A stretch of DNA of 23,048 nucleotides from a virus. Its lineage: Duplodnaviria; Heunggongvirae; Uroviricota; Caudoviricetes. Under the pieces are notes generated by a model. The model worked only from the letters and a program-made list of their open reading frames with translations. It had not been told where the DNA came from and did not search any database. Of this stretch, positions 6,854 through 17,540 are shown one piece after another. The first letter of the stretch is position 1. Each line of letters starts with the position of its first letter. Location of the stretch: IMG/VR virus record IMGVR_UViG_2651869692_000002; one strand, written 5' to 3'. The translations under genes and the position numbers were made by a program.

Positions 6854-7504
6854 TCAGCGGCTGTCATTGCGCAGTCTGCGCTCCAGCTGCTGTTTGTCTT
6901 TTTTCACGCCACAGCGGGGATCGAGCTGTAACGCATGGTTGAGATGATTAAGGGCGGAAGCCGGATTGCTTTCACTCAGGACAGCGCCAATCGCTTTATG
7001 CAGACGCGCCCGTGACTGGTCCGGCATATCCAGACCGTCTGTCAGCTCCAGCGTCTGCAGCAACAGATCGGCATCAAAGCCGGTGGCGGCAAGCATTGCG
7101 CTCTGCGCTGCATCTGCCATTTCCTCTGCCAGCACGGTCTGCACGTTGCGGTTACCCAGCGGCATCACCCAGCCATGACGCAGGGCATGACGCCCAATCT
7201 CCAGCGCCCCGGCATAATCTCCGGCATCAATGCGCCACAGCATCACGTACATCAGCACGTCATCCTGTTGAGCGCCTCCGGCAGCCAGGACGCCCTCCGC
7301 CCAGGCGGCATATTTCGGCAGCAGCTCCACCTTGATTTCCGCTTTTTTCACCGTGGACTGAACGCCCTTGAGACGGCGGCGGTCTTCCGCCAGTTGCAGC
7401 AGCATCAGGTCATAGCCCGACGCGTGGCGAACACTGCCGCCCTCACGGGCGGCCTGTTCAGCCTGAACGCGCAGGCGATGCTGCCGTGCGGGACTCAGGC
7501 TCAT
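6854..7504 (-). CDS. M: Terminase small/endonuclease subunit (P2 gpM-like)
   Basis: 216-aa ORF; N-terminal ..RH..RV.A motif and central AQDD.LM.VMLWR.D.GD.AGALEI motif matching gpM. Confidence 0.8.
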   Translation of the reverse strand: MSLSPARQHRLRVQAEQAAREGGSVRHASGYDLMLLQLAEDRRRLKGVQSTVKKAEIKVELLPKYAAWAEGVLAAGGAQQDDVLMYVMLWRIDAGDYAGALEIGRHALRHGWVMPLGNRNVQTVLAEEMADAAQSAMLAATGFDADLLLQTLELTDGLDMPDQSRARLHKAIGAVLSESNPASALNHLNHALQLDPRCGVKKDKQQLERRLRNDSR

Positions 7505-9555: not shown

Positions 9556-11322
9556 ATGAACACCACACTGACACCCGCAGATCTCGATCCCCGTCGGCAG
9601 GCCATGCTGCTGTACTTTCAGGGATACCGTGTAGCCCGCATTGCTGAAATGCTGGGCGAGAAAGTTGCAACCGTTCACAGCTGGAAAAAACGCGACAAGT
9701 GGGGTGACTATGGGCCGCTGGATCAGATGCAGCTCACCACCGCCGCACGCTACTGCCAGCTCATTATGAAGGAGCACAAAGAAGGGAAAGATTTCAAAGA
9801 GATTGACCTGCTGGCGCGCCAGTCGGAGCGCCATGCGCGGATCGGCAAGTTTAACAATGGCGGCAACGAAGCCGACTTAAACCCTAACGTCGCCAACCGC
9901 AACAAAGGCCCGCGCCGTCAGCCGGAAAAGAACGTTTTCACCGATGAACAGATTGAGAAGCTGGAAGAAATCTTCCATTCCTCCATGTTCAACTACCAGC
10001 GCCACTGGTGGGAAGCCGGAAAAACCAACCGCATCCGCAACCTGCTGAAGTCACGCCAGATCGGCGCGACCTTCTATTTTGCCCGTGAAGCCCTGATTGA
10101 CGCCCTGCTAACCAGGCGTAACCAGATTTTCCTTTCCGCCAGCAAGGCTCAGGCCCACGTCTTCAAGCAGTACATCATCGACTTCGCCAAAGAAGTGGAG
10201 GTGGAGCTGAAAGGCGATCCGATGGTGCTTCCTAACGGGGCCACGCTGTACTTCCTCGGCACCAATGCCCGCACGGCCCAGAGTTACCACGGCAACCTGT
10301 ATCTGGATGAATATTTCTGGATACCGAAATTCCAGGAGCTGCGCAAAGTGGCTTCCGGTATGGCTATTCACAAAAAATGGCGACAAACCTATTTTTCCAC
10401 GCCATCCAGCCTGACACACAGTGCTTATCCGTTCTGGTCCGGTGCGCTGTTCAACCGAGGGCGCAACAAAGCCGATAAGGTGGACATCGACCTGTCCCAC
10501 AGCAATCTGGCCCCCGGCCTGCTGTGCGCAGACGGGCAGTACCGCCAGATAGTCACTGTGGAAGATGCGGTGCGCGGCGGCTGTAACCTGTTCGACCTCG
10601 ACCAGTTGCGCATGGAGTACAGCCCGGACGAATACCAGAACCTGCTGATGTGTGAGTTCGTGGACGATCTCGCGTCCGTGTTCCCGCTCAGCGAGCTGCA
10701 GGCGTGCATGGTGGACAGCTGGGAAGTCTGGACCGACTTTCATGCACTGGCGCTGCGCCCGTTTGGCTGGCGCGAAGTGTGGATCGGTTATGACCCGGCA
10801 AAAGGTACGCAAAACGGCGACAGCGCCGGATGCGTGGTGGTGGCTCCGCCAGCCGTGCCGGGCGGCAAGTTCCGCATTCTTGAGCGTCACCAGTGGCGCG
10901 GAATGGACTTTCGCGCCCAGGCTGACGCCATCAAAAAACTGACCGAACAGTATAACGTGACCTATATCGGCATCGACTCGACCGGCGTCGGTCACGGGGT
11001 TTACGAGAACGTGAAAGCGTTTTTTCCTGCCGTCCGGGAGTTTGTCTACAACCCCAACGTTAAAAACGCCCTGGTACTCAAGGCCTACGACATTATCAGC
11101 CACCGCCGCCTGGAGTTTGACGCCGGGCACACCGACATTGCGCAGTCATTTATGGCAATCCGTCGCGCTACCACTGCCAGTGGCAACCGCCCGACCTATG
11201 AAGCCAGCCGCAGCGAAGAAGCCAGCCATGCCGATCTGGCCTGGGCAACAATGCACGCACTGTTTAACGAACCGCTGCAGGGCGAGTCCGCCAATACCAG
11301 CAATATTGTGGAGATTTTTTGA
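9556..11322 (+). CDS. P: Terminase large/ATPase subunit (P2 gpP-like)
   Basis: 588-aa ORF, ATG at 9556, full-length resemblance to P2-family terminase large subunits; stop overlaps the Q start (TGATG). Confidence 0.9.
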   Translation: MNTTLTPADLDPRRQAMLLYFQGYRVARIAEMLGEKVATVHSWKKRDKWGDYGPLDQMQLTTAARYCQLIMKEHKEGKDFKEIDLLARQSERHARIGKFNNGGNEADLNPNVANRNKGPRRQPEKNVFTDEQIEKLEEIFHSSMFNYQRHWWEAGKTNRIRNLLKSRQIGATFYFAREALIDALLTRRNQIFLSASKAQAHVFKQYIIDFAKEVEVELKGDPMVLPNGATLYFLGTNARTAQSYHGNLYLDEYFWIPKFQELRKVASGMAIHKKWRQTYFSTPSSLTHSAYPFWSGALFNRGRNKADKVDIDLSHSNLAPGLLCADGQYRQIVTVEDAVRGGCNLFDLDQLRMEYSPDEYQNLLMCEFVDDLASVFPLSELQACMVDSWEVWTDFHALALRPFGWREVWIGYDPAKGTQNGDSAGCVVVAPPAVPGGKFRILERHQWRGMDFRAQADAIKKLTEQYNVTYIGIDSTGVGHGVYENVKAFFPAVREFVYNPNVKNALVLKAYDIISHRRLEFDAGHTDIAQSFMAIRRATTASGNRPTYEASRSEEASHADLAWATMHALFNEPLQGESANTSNIVEIF

Positions 11323-12356
11323 TGGGAAAGAGTAAGAAGAACCGCGCTGCGTCGACGAAACAGATCCAGCATAAAAGCCAGACTTCAGCCGAAGCATTCA
11401 GCTTCGGTGATCCCGTTCCTGTTCTGGACCGCCGCGAACTGCTGGACTATGTGGAATGCGTACAGATGGATCGCTGGTATGAGCCACCAGTGAGTTTCGA
11501 CGGACTGGCGCGAACCTTCCGCGCCGCCATACATCATAGCTCACCGATTGCAGTGAAGTGCAACATTCTGACCAGCACCTACATCCCTCACCCGCTGCTC
11601 AGCCAGCAGGCTTTTTCGCGTTTTGTACAGGACTTTCTGGTTTTTGGTAACGCCTACCTGGAGAAACGCACGAACCGCTTCGGTGAAGTTATAGCCCTTG
11701 AGCCTGCTCTGGCAAAATACACCCGACGCGGGTTAGACCTGGATACCTACTGGTTTGTGCAATACGGTATGACAACCCAGCCGTATCAGTTCACGAAAGG
11801 CAGCATTTTTCATCTGATGGAGCCGGACATCAACCAGGAGATCTACGGCCTGCCCGGTTATCTTTCTGCCATTCCGTCAGCCCTGCTCAACGAGTCCGCC
11901 ACGCTGTTCCGCCGGAAGTATTACATTAACGGCAGCCATGCGGGCTTCATCATGTACATGACCGACGCCGCGCAGAACCAGGAGGATGTGAACAACCTCC
12001 GCAACGCAATGAAAAGTGCCAAAGGTCCTGGTAACTTCCGTAACCTGTTTATGTACTCGCCTAACGGCAAAAAGGACGGGCTTCAGATTATCCCGTTGTC
12101 AGAAGTGGCGGCGAAGGATGAGTTCCTGAATATCAAGAACGTGAGCCGGGACGACATGATGGCGGCGCATCGTGTGCCGCCGCAAATGATGGGTATCATT
12201 CCCAACAATACCGGCGGTTTTGGGGATGTGGAAAAGGCCAGTCGCGTCTTCACAAGAAACGAAATAGTACCGTTACAAAAGCGATTGCTGGAGCTAAATG
12301 AATGGCTTGGTGAAGAGGTAGTCCGATTCAATCCATATGAGCTTAATACTGACTAG
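11322..12356 (+). CDS. Q: Portal (capsid portal vertex) protein (P2 gpQ-like)
   Basis: Track ORF starts at a TTG at 11319; the ATG at 11322 gives 344 aa, the length I recall for gpQ; the last ~80 nt are visibly AT-richer than the rest. Confidence 0.9.
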   Translation: MGKSKKNRAASTKQIQHKSQTSAEAFSFGDPVPVLDRRELLDYVECVQMDRWYEPPVSFDGLARTFRAAIHHSSPIAVKCNILTSTYIPHPLLSQQAFSRFVQDFLVFGNAYLEKRTNRFGEVIALEPALAKYTRRGLDLDTYWFVQYGMTTQPYQFTKGSIFHLMEPDINQEIYGLPGYLSAIPSALLNESATLFRRKYYINGSHAGFIMYMTDAAQNQEDVNNLRNAMKSAKGPGNFRNLFMYSPNGKKDGLQIIPLSEVAAKDEFLNIKNVSRDDMMAAHRVPPQMMGIIPNNTGGFGDVEKASRVFTRNEIVPLQKRLLELNEWLGEEVVRFNPYELNTD

Positions 12357-12363
12357 CAAGCAT

Positions 12364-12388
12364 AAAAAAGCCCGGTATTACCGGGCTT
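12364..12388 (-). terminator. Rho-independent terminator (hairpin plus T-tract on the minus strand), possibly bidirectional
   Basis: AAAAA-AGCCCGG-TATTA-CCGGGCT: GC stem followed by a T-run when read on the minus strand; sits between the Q stop and the 3' end of the minus-strand small ORF. Confidence 0.55.
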
Positions 12389-12411
12389 CATGCAAAACGC
12401 ATTTCATGGAA

Positions 12412-12591
12412 TTAAGCAGCTTTCTGCTTTTCTTTGAGCTTACCATGCAGCTCATTTCCTTCAAATTTGCAGTCCTGCATCATATGTGGGGCCGCTTGAA
12501 GTAGTTCTTCCATCGCGACGCCCATACGGCTGAAAACATCAGATACTGAGTAATGCTTCTGAGCTTTCTTGTCACTATGCGTCATAGTCAT
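12412..12591 (-). CDS. Small hypothetical protein (59 aa), second gene of a two-gene minus-strand module
   Basis: Not in the ORF track (under 60 aa); ATG at 12591 preceded by AGAGGA at good spacing; reads MTMTHSDKKAQKHYSVSDVFSRMGVAMEELLQAAPHMMQDCKFEGNELHGKLKEKQKAA; followed by the terminator at 12364-12388. Confidence 0.4.
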   Translation of the reverse strand: MTMTHSDKKAQKHYSVSDVFSRMGVAMEELLQAAPHMMQDCKFEGNELHGKLKEKQKAA

Positions 12592-12670
12592 GATTTCCTC
12601 TTAGAGGTCAAGCCTCATCATCCGGTGGTGGATGTTTGGCGCAGCATTGTAGCACTGCGCAAAAATTTAT

Positions 12671-13270
12671 CTACTGTTTCTTAGAAGTAATGTAGCGTCT
12701 TACTACATCAGTTATTGTAGCAAAAGGTGCCGAAAGCAAGCTTATATCACCTTTAAAACCAAATTTTTTATAGTGGTCAGCAACTTTTTGATTCAGGGCT
12801 TCAGGGATCCGAATCTCTTGACACCCAACCGCGCTACCAAAAAGATATACCGCCCACAATGTAACCATGAACATGTTGCCGTAAAGAGGGTGCTCTACGT
12901 CATCATCTTTCACAAAAGATTCCACAAAATGGATCTCTATGACTCCAGCGTCCTCGTCAAAGGTGCACATAGCTGCGCCAGAAGGGATATGCCTAAGTGG
13001 CCCCGCAAGGAGCTTCAAACAAAATTCAAACTTATCACTTCGATTGCCAAACCGAGAAAAACCATAATCCCATTCTAGCTGAGCGTATCCTGTGGTCAGG
13101 ATCACATAGTCTTCATCACTGATTGGACCAACAGCCAACGGCATCTTCAAAGTATCGAGGAGAAACTGAAGGTTACTTATACTTTGACTGGCAATCTGCT
13201 CTAAGTTCAATTCTCTGTCCTTCATGCTTACGACATTAAAGGCGACTACTTTAATGTCATTTTCGGACAA
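12671..13270 (-). CDS. Hypothetical protein (199 aa), AT-rich accessory gene between the portal gene and the putative cos
   Basis: 600-nt ORF in an AT-rich region; start uncertain (TTG at 13270 or ATG at 13225, neither with a strong RBS); no family recognised. Confidence 0.5.
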   Translation of the reverse strand: MSENDIKVVAFNVVSMKDRELNLEQIASQSISNLQFLLDTLKMPLAVGPISDEDYVILTTGYAQLEWDYGFSRFGNRSDKFEFCLKLLAGPLRHIPSGAAMCTFDEDAGVIEIHFVESFVKDDDVEHPLYGNMFMVTLWAVYLFGSAVGCQEIRIPEALNQKVADHYKKFGFKGDISLLSAPFATITDVVRRYITSKKQ

Positions 13271-13496
13271 AGACTATAAATCTTTAATGAAACAATAGCA
13301 GAACCTTTTAAAGGTTTGCTACCTATCACTGCAACTTGTGACAGAACACTAAATCTACAGCCAACTCCGGAACACATTCAACATTTATTTAAATCCCTTC
13401 AAACAAGATTGCACAAAAACGCGCCCTCCCTTTCAGAAGAAAACCATCAGCGGGCCTGAGGCTAAGTGAATTTTACTATTTCAACCCGCGGCGCGC

Positions 13497-13515
13497 GCTC
13501 GTATCCCCGCCACGC
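13497..13515 (-). other. Putative cos site (cohesive-end region) of the P2/186 family
   Basis: Minus strand reads GGCGTGGCGGGGATACGAG; the first 13 nt match my recollection of the P2/186 cohesive-end consensus (GGCG(A/T)GGCGGGGAAAGCA.), in the orientation expected for the Q-proximal genome end; GC-rich island inside AT-rich DNA. Confidence 0.4.
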
Positions 13516-13560
13516 CTGCCCGCTTTGTGTAGTGGTTTTCATGCACCTGCATGACATAAG

Positions 13561-13584
13561 CAAAAGCCCGCCAGCTCTGGCGGG
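13561..13584 (-). terminator. Rho-independent terminator downstream of the HNH gene
   Basis: 9-bp GC stem GCCCGCCAG / CTGGCGGGC followed on the minus strand by TTTTGCTT. Confidence 0.55.
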
Positions 13585-13698
13585 CATCAGCAAAAACGAT
13601 CCTCAAACGATCATGCGATTTCATGCGGCATAGACATGCGTTGGCAAAAATGCACGAAATACTCAGCTTATAGGAAATGGTCTTTTTCCAACCTCCAG

Positions 13699-14418
13699 TT
13701 AGCCAAAGCAGAAACCAATATTGCAATTTGAAACTCCACAGTTGTGAAATTGATGTGGACCTACTCTTAGCTTGTGTTCGTCTCCTACAATCCGAGTCCC
13801 CTTAACCAACATATCTAATCTTTCCACAATCAATCTTTCAGGCGCATCAACTTTAATAATTAAACGAGGACCTTTCCTTTTTTCTATAATAGTTATTCTA
13901 GGACCGACAACCTGAACATCCCAATGCCTTGCACTACAAACCCACTCATTCTTAATTAATTCAAGATTAACAATACCTTGACTATCGTAAAATTTACCCG
14001 AAATAAGAAAAGCATTATTTTCTTTTTCAATGGTTAACAATGGCTCATTTTGAAACATTATTGGTACAGTACAGGATTCAAACGTCGCACCACCAAATAT
14101 TATTGTTGGATGCCTATCAGAAAAGTCCAATATATCGGCCACATTCCCTTTTTGTAAGGCTGCAGGAGATTCCATTGCTTTAATTATTTTCTCTTTAGAG
14201 TAAAGACGTTTCGTTACTTTCGCATGGCACGTAGGACAAAGTAGTGCTATTGCATTTGGAGAGTGCTCCTTTGCATCAGCGTATGTGGGAATTACATGCT
14301 CATACTCAACAATGGGAGAAGCACAAACAACGCAACCGAAGCCACAGCGCTGCCTTACCTCCAGTTTTACAGGTTCAGGAATTGTTCTAGATAACCCATG
14401 CTTGTTAATAGTTGTCAT
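13699..14418 (-). CDS. HNH-family endonuclease domain protein with uncharacterised ~160-aa C-terminal domain
   Basis: 239-aa ORF, ATG at 14418; N-terminal CGFGCVVC...EYEHVIP...NAIALLCPTCH matches the HNH fold (paired Cys plus H-N-H residues); AT-rich composition; own terminator. Confidence 0.7.
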   Translation of the reverse strand: MTTINKHGLSRTIPEPVKLEVRQRCGFGCVVCASPIVEYEHVIPTYADAKEHSPNAIALLCPTCHAKVTKRLYSKEKIIKAMESPAALQKGNVADILDFSDRHPTIIFGGATFESCTVPIMFQNEPLLTIEKENNAFLISGKFYDSQGIVNLELIKNEWVCSARHWDVQVVGPRITIIEKRKGPRLIIKVDAPERLIVERLDMLVKGTRIVGDEHKLRVGPHQFHNCGVSNCNIGFCFG

Positions 14419-14540
14419 AACCTTACCTTAAAACTTCGAGAAACCTTTTATATATTGATACTATATCAACTAACGCCTCGCACAGCTCGTTGTTCAACCT
14501 TGCTGACGCCAGAAGCAAGTTCAGACGCCAGCAACGTTTC

Positions 14541-14774
14541 TTAATGCAGCCAGCTGTCGTCTTCCCACACCTTCTGCATAATTTTCATCACTTGTTTTCT
14601 TTCTTCGTCCAGTTGAAGTCCGGTCAGTTCCACACCGTTAGAGCTACCTTTGCGGATACGAATTACCGTTTTGGGATACAGGGGGCGCAGATTGCGGTAA
14701 AGCTCGGATTCAAGGGCGTCCAGGGTAGACTGGCTAATCTTCTGCTCTTTATCGATCATTATTTCAATGCGCAT
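14541..14774 (-). CDS. dinI: DinI-family protein
   Basis: ATG at 14774 with GAGGTGA RBS; MRIEIMIDK...L.ELYRNLRPLYPKTVIRIRKGSSNGVELTGL...KQVMKIMQKVWEDDSWL resembles DinI (MRIEVTI..., C-terminal ...WE..D.W); the track ORF's longer N-terminus is a frame artefact. Confidence 0.75.
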   Translation of the reverse strand: MRIEIMIDKEQKISQSTLDALESELYRNLRPLYPKTVIRIRKGSSNGVELTGLQLDEERKQVMKIMQKVWEDDSWLH

Positions 14775-14784
14775 AAAAGTCACC

Positions 14785-14973
14785 TCAACTGATGACATCC
14801 ATTGAGCGGTTGTATTCGTGGGTTCTGATTTTTGCCATGAGTTCATCTGTCAGTTCAGAAACCCACTGCAGGGCCAGCCCCTTCTCTTCATCACTACACT
14901 CACTAGCCGCTACAAGCTTAAGAAAAAAATCAATGCGCTGGAGCTTCAAAGACTCCAAAAAATAGTCCTGCAT
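14785..14973 (-). CDS. Small SOS-controlled protein (62 aa), first gene downstream of a LexA box; possible Tum-like antirepressor component
   Basis: ATG at 14973 with AGGAGG RBS, 41 nt downstream of a consensus LexA box; stop overlaps the RBS of the DinI-like gene; functional assignment is by position only. Confidence 0.5.
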   Translation of the reverse strand: MQDYFLESLKLQRIDFFLKLVAASECSDEEKGLALQWVSELTDELMAKIRTHEYNRSMDVIS

Positions 14974-15014: not shown

Positions 15015-15034
15015 CACTGTTTATATTTACAGTA
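15015..15034 (-). promoter_or_regulatory. LexA operator (SOS box) at the promoter of the small-ORF / dinI module
   Basis: Minus strand TACTGTAAATATAAACAGTG fits CTGT-N8-ACAG with AT-rich spacer; an adjacent half-site (CTGT at 15002-15005) is also present. Confidence 0.7.
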
Positions 15035-15125: not shown

Positions 15126-17540
15126 TTAATACAGGTTCCGCCACTTATCATCTTCCTGCAAACGCTGGTTCCGATAGAAGATACGCAGGCCTGCTCCTGA
15201 CGGAATACTGCCGCCGCGAAGGAGTAAATCGACCTCTTTCTCGCTGCCATCAAATCCTCTGGACTTCAGTTCATAGACGAGCTGCTGTCGCTGATGGTCT
15301 GTAATTCGCTGTTTGTAGTCTTTACGCCGTTTCGGTTTCACCAGGCGTAACCTTGCTGCCAGTTCCCGGCGCTCTTTTTTGCTCATACTGTGCAGGTAAT
15401 CGTGCAACTCCTTGTCATCCATGCGGGTAATGTCCGTTCTGGTATCCCCATCAGCTGATTTGTCTTTCCCTTGTTGGTTCAAATTTTCAGCAAGGGGACA
15501 GTTATTGCCACGAGTCCAAGGGGCGCAAGCGCCCTGGTCGGCTGCCGCCTCCTGAACGTCAACGGCCTTACGAACCATTTTCCACTTCACGGCATGAGTG
15601 CAGATCTTGCCCTCTGCAATAGGTGACCAGATGCCATAAATACGAATGCCGTGATCGCCATAGGCGGTCGGCTCTTCGTTGATTTCATAAGCAGTTCTGA
15701 TGAGGTGATATTTACGGGGAACCAGTACGCCGCCCTGCTTCATGATGTAGGTGGCAAAACAACCAGCATCAGCAGCAGCCAGGATTGCATCAAGCCGCGG
15801 GTTATCCAGTACCGGCGCACCTGCTTTTTTGTCACCCTGTTGCCTTGCCGCCTGACCAGCCAGCAATCGCAGTTCACGGTAAGCCTGACGCCCCGGAATG
15901 CCAAAGAAGCGGAATTGCTGAACACGATGCAGAGACGCCCAGGCATTCACGTATTCAGCGTTATCACGCAGGGATTTACCCGTTTCCTTGCTGATCTCGC
16001 CAGCCAGACCACGCCCGTCAATGTTCTTACTGATATATTTCGCGATGTAGCTTGTCGGCGTTCCTTTGCGCGGGTTAATCAACTCAGACTTAAAGCGTGG
16101 TCCCGTGTTATTCCCCAGCTCCTCGCGGTCTTCACGAATGGCAAACTTACGCAACAAAGCAGTAATGGCGCGGCGATCTTTTTTGCGCATAAAACACAAC
16201 AGGTGCCAGTGAACTGTACCGTCATGATGCGGCTCAGCCACCCGCACGCCATACCAGCGCAATCCGGCTTTGTGCATCGCCTTACGAAATGCAGCAAACA
16301 TGCCAACCAGATAATCACTGCTTTGTCTTACCGTCGCATTTGTCCAGGTCGGGTTGGGCCTGCCGTTATTTAGCGTGGAATGGAAACGTGACGGACAGGT
16401 GATGGTGTAGAAAACGGCGCAGTCACCGCGCATTTCCGCGATAAGCTCCAGGCCTTTAACACAGGCCATCATCTCATTGCGGCGATGCGCAGGGTTGCTG
16501 CTGCTGGCGTTTACCACATCCTCCATGTCCAGCGTGTCGCCGTCTTCGTTCACCAGTTCATGAGAACGGAAAAACTCCAGCGACTTACGGCGCTGCTCAC
16601 GTTTATGCATCACGGCTTCATAGCTGACATAGGGAGATGCTTTTTTGCTGACCAGACAGACAGCACGCAACTGCTCTTCCCGCCATTCGCAACGCATCTT
16701 CCATAATTTCCGATACCACCAGTCGGCGCACAGCATACGCGCCAGCGAACCCGGAATGAGTTCATAGGGCACAGGTTTGCGGCGGTTTCTTTTTCGGCGG
16801 AGTTGCTCAAACGCAGGCGGTATGACATCCAGTCGCAGGGTTTCTGCTGCCACCTTTTCCCATGTCTTGCGGATTTCTTCCGGCTTAACATCATCGGAGG
16901 CGTACAAATCACCACAAGCGGCATCAAGACACATGCTCATATGCGCAGCGACAAGGGTGGACAGGCGTTTCACCTGATCCTGACTCATTTCAGGCAGGAT
17001 CAGCAGACCGTCCAGCCCTTCATGGCTTGCCATAAAACGAAAAGATGCAGATAGCTGGCTGTCGCGTACATGCTCCAGTCGTTCCAGGCATGGCTTAATC
17101 GTCTCACGCAAATAGCGGGAATAAGCCTTTGGCCTGCCCAGGTTGCTGAAGTATTTAATACGTTGCATCAGCGGCTTGCTGATATGGGAAGGCTGGGCGT
17201 TGACATCCGCCAGAATGACCATGTCTGGATTAAAACGCTGCTGCTCATGCGCCAGCTTTGCCCGGCTAATTAGCTTATCCTGCTCCATTTCGCGCTGGAC
17301 AGGATCACGGGATTCATTAAAGAAATAACGCTCCCAGACCTGATCACTCAGTGCCTCGCGGCGCAGTTGTTCCTGCTCGTTATCGGCAGCGTACAGAGTG
17401 ATCAGGTTTGAAAGTGCAGAAACCGGCGCAACTTCCGCCGGGTCCAGATAAGGGTTAATGGCCTTTTTCGGGCTGTTCCATGAGAATGCTGCGGCAGCCT
17501 CGTTAAAGCCGCAGCAGTTGTTCATATCGGCATGACTCAT
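15126..17540 (-). CDS. A: Rolling-circle replication initiation protein (P2 gpA-like)
   Basis: 804-aa ORF with HWHLL metal-binding motif and YIAKYISK tyrosine motif typical of gpA/phiX174-type Rep proteins; canonical position after the early operon. Confidence 0.85.

Follow-up and report, generated by a model that had tools for sequence, protein, structure and literature searches.

The DNA analysed here (the window, 23,048 nt in total) is part of a 186/Fels-2-type prophage of the P2 family (Peduoviridae) in E. coli, and one E. coli chromosome (NZ_CP172871) carries its positions 12300-14500 at 99.7% identity. The first part of the plus-strand layout is occupied by baseplate, tail and lysis genes, and the gene order around the locus of interest is A-(62 aa, DinI)-HNH-cos-cargo-Q-P. 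The genes concerned and the first feature downstream of the portal gene are as follows:

6854-7504, minus strand: small terminase gene (P2 gpM homologue; Pfam Phage_term_smal, E 2e-40)
minus strand: genes of the head, namely L, M (the small terminase), N and O
9556-11322, plus strand: large terminase gene (P2 gpP homologue; Pfam Terminase_5, Terminase_6N and Terminase_6C)
11319-12356, plus strand: portal gene (homologue of P2 Q and 186 W; Pfam Phage_portal)
12367-12389, minus strand: hairpin with T-run, 10 nt after the Q stop, in terminator orientation for the minus-strand cargo and not for Q
12412-12591, minus strand: 59-aa protein (PHROG match, phrog_2741)
12671-13225, minus strand: 184-aa protein with a predicted GNAT fold (phrog_4350, E 3e-77)
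13699-14418, minus strand: HNH-domain protein of 239 aa (phrog_6544; Pfam HNH), cargo of the right slot
15126-17540, minus strand: replication gene A
minus strand: Dam methylase and CII genes
plus strand: 186-type CI repressor and integrase genes

The genes M, P, Q, O, N and L are all full-length with strong Pfam matches, and the gpP-type large and gpM-type small terminase genes are thus both intact on the same element as the putative cos site. Genes for the capsid, CI, CII, A, Dam and integrase are present in the window as well. A perfect LexA-box-like site (CTGT-N8-ACAG, CTGTTTATATTTACAG) was also observed at 15017-15032, just upstream of a minus-strand operon for the 62-aa protein (phrog_698) and DinI (14541-14973). 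The p95/tum operon of 186 is SOS-controlled, and the LexA-box-like site with the 62-aa/DinI operon resembles it; the site suggests that derepression of the prophage may be SOS-inducible.

Between the cargo genes and the HNH gene lies a GC-rich 19-mer, GGCGTGGCGGGGATACGAG, which reads ...AAAGCGGGCA GGCGTGGCGGGGATACGAG CGCGCGCC... with its surroundings on the minus strand. The initial annotation had put this sequence at 13497-13515; it is indeed present, but shifted by 1 nt, running from 13516 to 13498 on the minus strand. It does not recur anywhere else in the 23 kb: a search tolerating up to 3 mismatches gave a single match, where 100 shuffles led to an expectation of 0.00. As in P2 and 186, it is read in the direction of Q, which is on the opposite strand, so its orientation relative to Q had been correctly described.

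Both P2 and 186 have 19-nt 5' cohesive ends that were determined experimentally. These ends occupy positions 1-19 of the GenBank records (GGCGAGGCGGGGAAAGCAC in P2, AF063097; GGCGTGGCGGGGAAAGCAT in 186, U32222), and alignment of the window with the two cos regions, which the annotation had proposed as a check, revealed a genuine match of 15/19 bases to 186 and 14/19 to P2. The first 13 nt (GGCGTGGCGGGGA) had been described as a match to the P2/186 cohesive end; they are identical to 186 (13/13) and agree with P2 at 12 of the 13 positions. The difference from the two phages is concentrated in positions 14-19 of the overhang, which are TACGAG in the window and AAGCAC or AAGCAT in P2/186.

The likeness extends well beyond the 19-mer. 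Upstream GCAT boxes together with AAGCGGGCA, and a downstream GCGCGC, flank the 19-mer in the window, P2 and 186 alike; the upstream box (-33 to -1) is identical at 24 of 33 positions to P2 and likewise to 186, and at 32 of 33 to Salmonella phage SEN8, and the GCGCGC box matches at 6/7 positions in the P2/186 alignment. When this junction is aligned among the window, SEN8, 186 and P2, the four sequences run collinearly for about 160 bp, with a GGTGCAT(G/T)AAAACC box, AAG(C/T)GGGC(A/G), the 19-mer and GCGCGC as common elements and with GCAT columns invariant at four places. P4 is a satellite that is packaged by the P2 terminase. Its cos has the same architecture as that of the window: GCAT repeats, GCAT(T/G)AAAACC, AAGCGGGC(A/G), the 19-mer and YGCGCGC occur in the same register in the window, 186, P2 and P4.

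The closest correspondence was found in SEN8 (Felsduovirus, KT630647), in which all 19 bases are identical and are followed by an identical CGCGCGC, while 51 of 55 upstream bases match. The SEN8 record annotates a 'putative cos site' at its positions 1-19, and its last base is the base directly before the 19-mer. SEN8 forms plaques, and the 19-mer of the window is printed as cos in the paper describing it, assigned by annotation without end mapping (PMC5427200). The same 19-mer and CGCGCGC box are found in Fels-2, RE-2010 and Escherichia phage Cartapus, in the last of which the 19-mer lies inside an annotated 'putative cos' feature. These four phages differ from the window in the cargo genes of the slot, which in the window encode the GNAT-fold and 59-aa proteins. 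The identification of the 19-mer as a cos site is therefore borne out by identity with the SEN8 annotation (19/19) and by collinearity, flanks included, with the cos regions of P2, 186 and P4.

An nhmmer profile of the element was run on 80 loci that had been collected by way of the portal protein, each from the genome of a different species. The element was detected downstream of Q in 79 of the 80 loci, always in the same orientation and with its place relative to Q and A kept. Flanking homology of about 150 bp to phage cos regions was found in 98 phage records and in about 1255 E. coli genomes. A fortuitous GC-rich match with no packaging role would have only the general GC-richness of the motif in its favour, and it is rejected as practically nil in probability by the shuffles (no match in 100 at 3 mismatches), the junction alignment with its ~150 bp of flanking homology, the constant place and orientation in 79/80 loci, and the conservation footprint described below.

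In 49 distinct loci from different species, the alignment columns are highly conserved between about -125 and +26, counted from base 1 of the 19-mer, and conservation falls abruptly to background on the portal side. The conserved block thus spans 13491-13639 (149 bp) and is asymmetric, with about 125 bp on the side of the replication gene, the 19-mer, and 7 bp on the portal side. Its elements are:

13491-13497, minus strand: CGCGCGC box (+20 to +26), where conservation toward the portal gene (left arm) ends and the left slot is bounded (conservation about 0.9 up to +26)
13498-13516, minus strand: 19-nt cohesive-end sequence, the predicted site of staggered nicking (cosN equivalent) by homology to the cos of P2, 186 and SEN8
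13517-13553, minus strand: proximal box CATGCAGGTGCATGAAAACC...AAGCGGGCA, about -37 to -1 (most columns from -33 to -1 conserved at 90% or more in the 49 loci)
13566-13585, minus strand: perfect 9-bp hairpin GCCCGCCAG/CTGGCGGGC followed by TTTTGC, inside the cos block
13612-13639, minus strand: distal GCATG repeats, three copies 10-13 bp apart, forming the right boundary of the block (GCAT columns invariant across the window, SEN8, 186 and P2)

The CGCGCGC box also occurs in P2, 186 and P4, and breakpoints of E. coli mosaics fall at 13491. A 55-bp cos core is common to P2 and P4 (PMC9594776), and the stretch from about -29 through +26 in the window would fit this core, a placement that we infer. 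The GCATG repeats are candidate terminase-binding repeats, a role suggested by their conservation alone. The number of TGCAT/ATGCA words in the cos block is not distinctive, as three per 144 bp is the maximum of the window and is attained at more than one position; the case for the repeats therefore lies in column conservation across phages and not in over-representation. The hairpin at 13566-13585 appears terminator-like for right-arm (minus-strand) transcripts. A hairpin was observed at the same position of the cos block in the window, SEN8, 186 (with a similar sequence, CGCCAGAGCTGGCG) and P4 (with a different stem sequence), and P2 has no obvious equivalent. This suggests that the hairpin may be a conserved structural or terminator element insulating cos from right-arm transcription. 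A scan of the whole window against Rfam found no RNA family, and the conserved block is thus not accounted for by any known RNA element.

The cohesive end itself varies among species. The 19-mer of the window is the commonest variant (32 of the 49 species loci), position 13 is free to be A, C, G or T, and the consensus is GGCGTGGCGGGGNTACGAG. A second class of species ends finishes in ...ATAGCAT, and variation of this kind could define packaging-specificity groups for P4-like satellites. The free position 13 and the unlikeness of the 3' third of the 19-mer to P2 and 186 would also be expected if the cos region were real and the cuts fell at other positions, or left an overhang of another length, than the predicted 19 nt, and the SEN8 cos for the same 19-mer rests on annotation (PMC5427200). 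We consider such different cuts very improbable, as the invariant flanks (AAGCGGGCA, 19 nt, YGCGCGC) stand in the exact register of P2, 186 and P4.

Comparison with other E. coli genomes supported the claim that cargo genes lie on both sides of cos, as relatives are about 99% identical to the window over either 12300-13639 or 13491-14500. About 10 genomes match 12300-13639 at this level and then diverge, with the breakpoint at 13639/13640, and many others match 13491-14500 and differ leftward of 13491. Only one E. coli genome has both flanks, which leaves the 149-bp cos block as the sole common piece. Since conservation extends for just 7 bp from the 19-mer toward the portal gene and for about 125 bp toward the replication gene, the DNA outside is replaceable and both flanks are slots for accessory genes. 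In the right slot, the region of the HNH gene is about 99% identical in E. coli prophages whose left slot differs, and the gene adjoins the SOS-type 62-aa/DinI operon; PADLOC gave only a sub-threshold mREase_IV match for its product.

The left slot separates the 19-mer from the portal gene. As described initially, a two-gene module stands between them, and the distance from the Q stop (12356) to 13498 is 1141 nt. In P2 and 186, cos lies 167-176 bp from the portal stop with only a terminator between, and the initial annotation had remarked that cos in the window stands apart from the portal gene 'instead of adjacent' to it. This is no anomaly: among 79 related loci from different species the distance varies between 138 and 4244 bp, and its median, 1548 bp, exceeds the value in the window. 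P2-like adjacency (less than 250 bp) was found in only 14 of the 79 loci, and the distance is 500 bp or more in 62. Several known phages carry genes in this position: a single gene of 565 aa in Fels-2, SEN8 has two genes in the slot, Cartapus a DUF4145 gene and E. coli a7 an 89-aa gene. The left junction of the variable slot reaches into the 3' end of Q, because the last portal codons and the hairpin that follows them vary with the cassette; comparison of 12330-12392 with related loci showed such variation in what follows the Q stop, terminator included, and even in the last codons of Q.

The slot has been described before. Extra ORFs between cosL and the gpQ homologue were reported, and the region between cos and Q was recognized as a hotspot, with ORF1-4 of Ralstonia phage phiRSY1 as an example (PMC5694545); further examples given there are the retrons Ec67 and Ec86 in 186-related prophages (Dodd & Egan 1996, as cited in PMC5694545) and ctx of phiCTX (Nakayama 1999, as cited in PMC5694545). 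The window shares with these cases a left-arm moron slot, in which foreign genes stand between cos and the portal/terminator region and phage functions are left undisturbed (PMC5694545), while its cargo differs from theirs. According to Rousset et al. 2022, the cos-proximal gpA-gpQ region is a defence hotspot with 1,650 gene arrangements (PMC9122126), and this hotspot of E. coli P2-like phages is the same locus as that of the window. The 59-aa protein (WP_021523861) and the HNH protein (WP_000207842) of the window appear as 'hypothetical' in the supplementary locus listing of that study (file 6; PMC9122126). In the available text of Rousset et al. 2022 and of the 2026 NAR follow-up, the interval from A to Q is treated as one hotspot and cos is not placed inside it, whereas in the window there are two slots split by the 149-bp cos block. 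The accessory genes of P4 (gop/beta/cII) were observed to start on the left-arm side of cos, just past the CGCGCGC box. They are thus on the same side of cos as the cos-Q slot of the window, and the left slot of P2-like phages is therefore the positional homologue of the P4 hotspot.

The module in the left slot had been described as encoding proteins of 199 and 59 aa. Two minus-strand ORFs are present, but the longer one more likely starts at ATG 13225 (184 aa) than at TTG 13270 (199 aa), since PGAP calls the ATG start in a relative that is 100% identical. Neither the 184-aa nor the 59-aa protein has a match in Pfam, NCBIfam or PADLOC, and a phmmer search of the cassette proteins against PDB sequences returned only noise. 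An AlphaFold (AF2) model of the 184-aa protein was built from a 26-sequence alignment (pLDDT 81.7, pTM 0.80), and a Foldseek search of the PDB with it gave 143 matches at E<=0.001; among the matches listed (50), all are GNAT-family acetyltransferases, including SpeG, KacT, AtaT and Rv0998 with TM scores of about 0.5-0.56. By its model, the protein is predicted to have the GNAT alpha/beta fold. The family conserves HPLxGxM and N..A...Y...GF, the latter resembling GNAT motif B, while its P-loop-like motif is atypical in comparison with the canonical acetyl-CoA motif Q/RxxGxG/A; neither Pfam nor NCBIfam gave a GNAT match.

The cassette travels beyond E. coli. Among loci fetched by protein identity, it occupies the same cos-Q slot in P2-like prophages of Pectobacterium and Edwardsiella, and in Serratia symbiotica it stands beside an S24-type repressor in a lambdoid prophage. 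The 59-aa gene lies directly downstream of the GNAT-fold gene in 6/6 loci from these three groups. None of the 80 species-representative loci has the 184/59 module adjoining Q, and the module is thus a rare cassette. Since the pair occurs in the cos-Q slots of several genera and in a lambdoid prophage, it is a mobile cassette of two genes, and the view that these genes belong to the conserved phage backbone was rejected. In E. coli 504239 (NZ_CP025859), an identical 184/59-aa module and the cos block are kept, and an IS66-family element lies in the portal gene, which makes this prophage a defective one.

GNAT-RHH type II toxin-antitoxin systems (AtaT/TacT/KacT) have the gene for an RHH-type antitoxin immediately upstream of the toxin gene. 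A canonical system of this kind was ruled out for the cassette, whose small partner is encoded downstream and has no match to RHH or to any other Pfam family. The model of the 184-aa protein is no closer to KacT or AtaT than to SpeG. The cassette is a candidate acetyltransferase-based defence or toxin-antitoxin module, one without the AtaT/TacT layout.

Taken together, these observations argue that the element is the cos site of a Fels-2/186-type prophage, cut by the phage terminase and flanked by two cargo slots, and we put the probability of this reading at about 0.9. The terminase of P2 and 186 (gpM and gpP) recognizes cos and makes staggered nicks 19 nt apart, which gives 5' cohesive ends. 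By homology, the gpM-like and gpP-like terminase of this prophage would recognize the asymmetric element of about 150 bp at 13491-13639, which on the minus strand consists of the GCATG repeats, the hairpin, the GGTGCATGAAAACC...AAGCGGGCA box, the 19-mer and CGCGCGC, and would nick the 19-mer in a staggered manner to produce 19-nt 5' cohesive ends. Judged from the conservation footprint, nearly all recognition determinants would lie on the right-end (A-gene) side, together with the 19-mer and 7 further bases; if recognition ends at +26, the DNA from +27 onward is free to vary. The nick positions, the binding of terminase to the GCAT repeats and the activity of the site in this prophage are what we infer from homology, and the nick positions in particular are extrapolated, since the 3' part of the overhang differs from that of P2/186 (TACGAG versus AAGCAT/C).

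The element could instead be a homologous cos that is no longer used, in a defective prophage whose site is never cut, and such prophages do decay, as the IS66 insertion in the portal gene of E. coli 504239 beside the same module illustrates. For the prophage in the window we consider this improbable: M, P, Q, O, N and L, its packaging and head genes, are full-length, CI, CII, A, Dam and integrase are present, and the block is identical to that of the plaque-forming SEN8 at 51/55 and 19/19 positions.

If the site is cut as proposed, the virion DNA would carry the 184/59-aa cassette at its extreme left end and the HNH gene at its extreme right end. In lambda, the end bearing cosB enters first. 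By analogy, the left end with the 184/59 module would be packaged last, as the initial annotation had supposed. Among papers citing Chattoraj & Inman 1974, Christie & Calendar 2016 and Ziermann & Calendar 1990, those consulted contain no statement on which end of P2 DNA is packaged last or is adjacent to the tail. In the window and in P2-like prophages of dozens of species, the left slot starts 7 bp past the cohesive end. As this start is so exact and P4 has its accessory genes likewise on the same side, cleavage at cos could seed the exchange of cassettes. That the free end formed at packaging or injection does so, and that the GNAT-fold and 59-aa pair is an uncharacterised anti-phage or toxin-antitoxin module at the end of the virion DNA, is a speculative proposal that we regard as rather unlikely.

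The cos site of the window is thus an ordinary one, and for this phage lineage it is normal, and already on record, that cargo flanks cos on both sides and that some of it stands before the portal gene. A cos site away from the portal gene looks odd beside P2 and 186, but most of the Fels-2/186-like lineage has this arrangement, which can be found both in the literature and in GenBank annotations. For annotation, the block at 13491-13639 marks the ends of the virion genome as predicted by homology. It also divides the 'gpA-gpQ hotspot' of the literature in two, each part an independent and sharply bounded slot, which helps in setting the limits of cassettes to be screened for defence or toxin-antitoxin activity, the GNAT-fold/59-aa pair among them.
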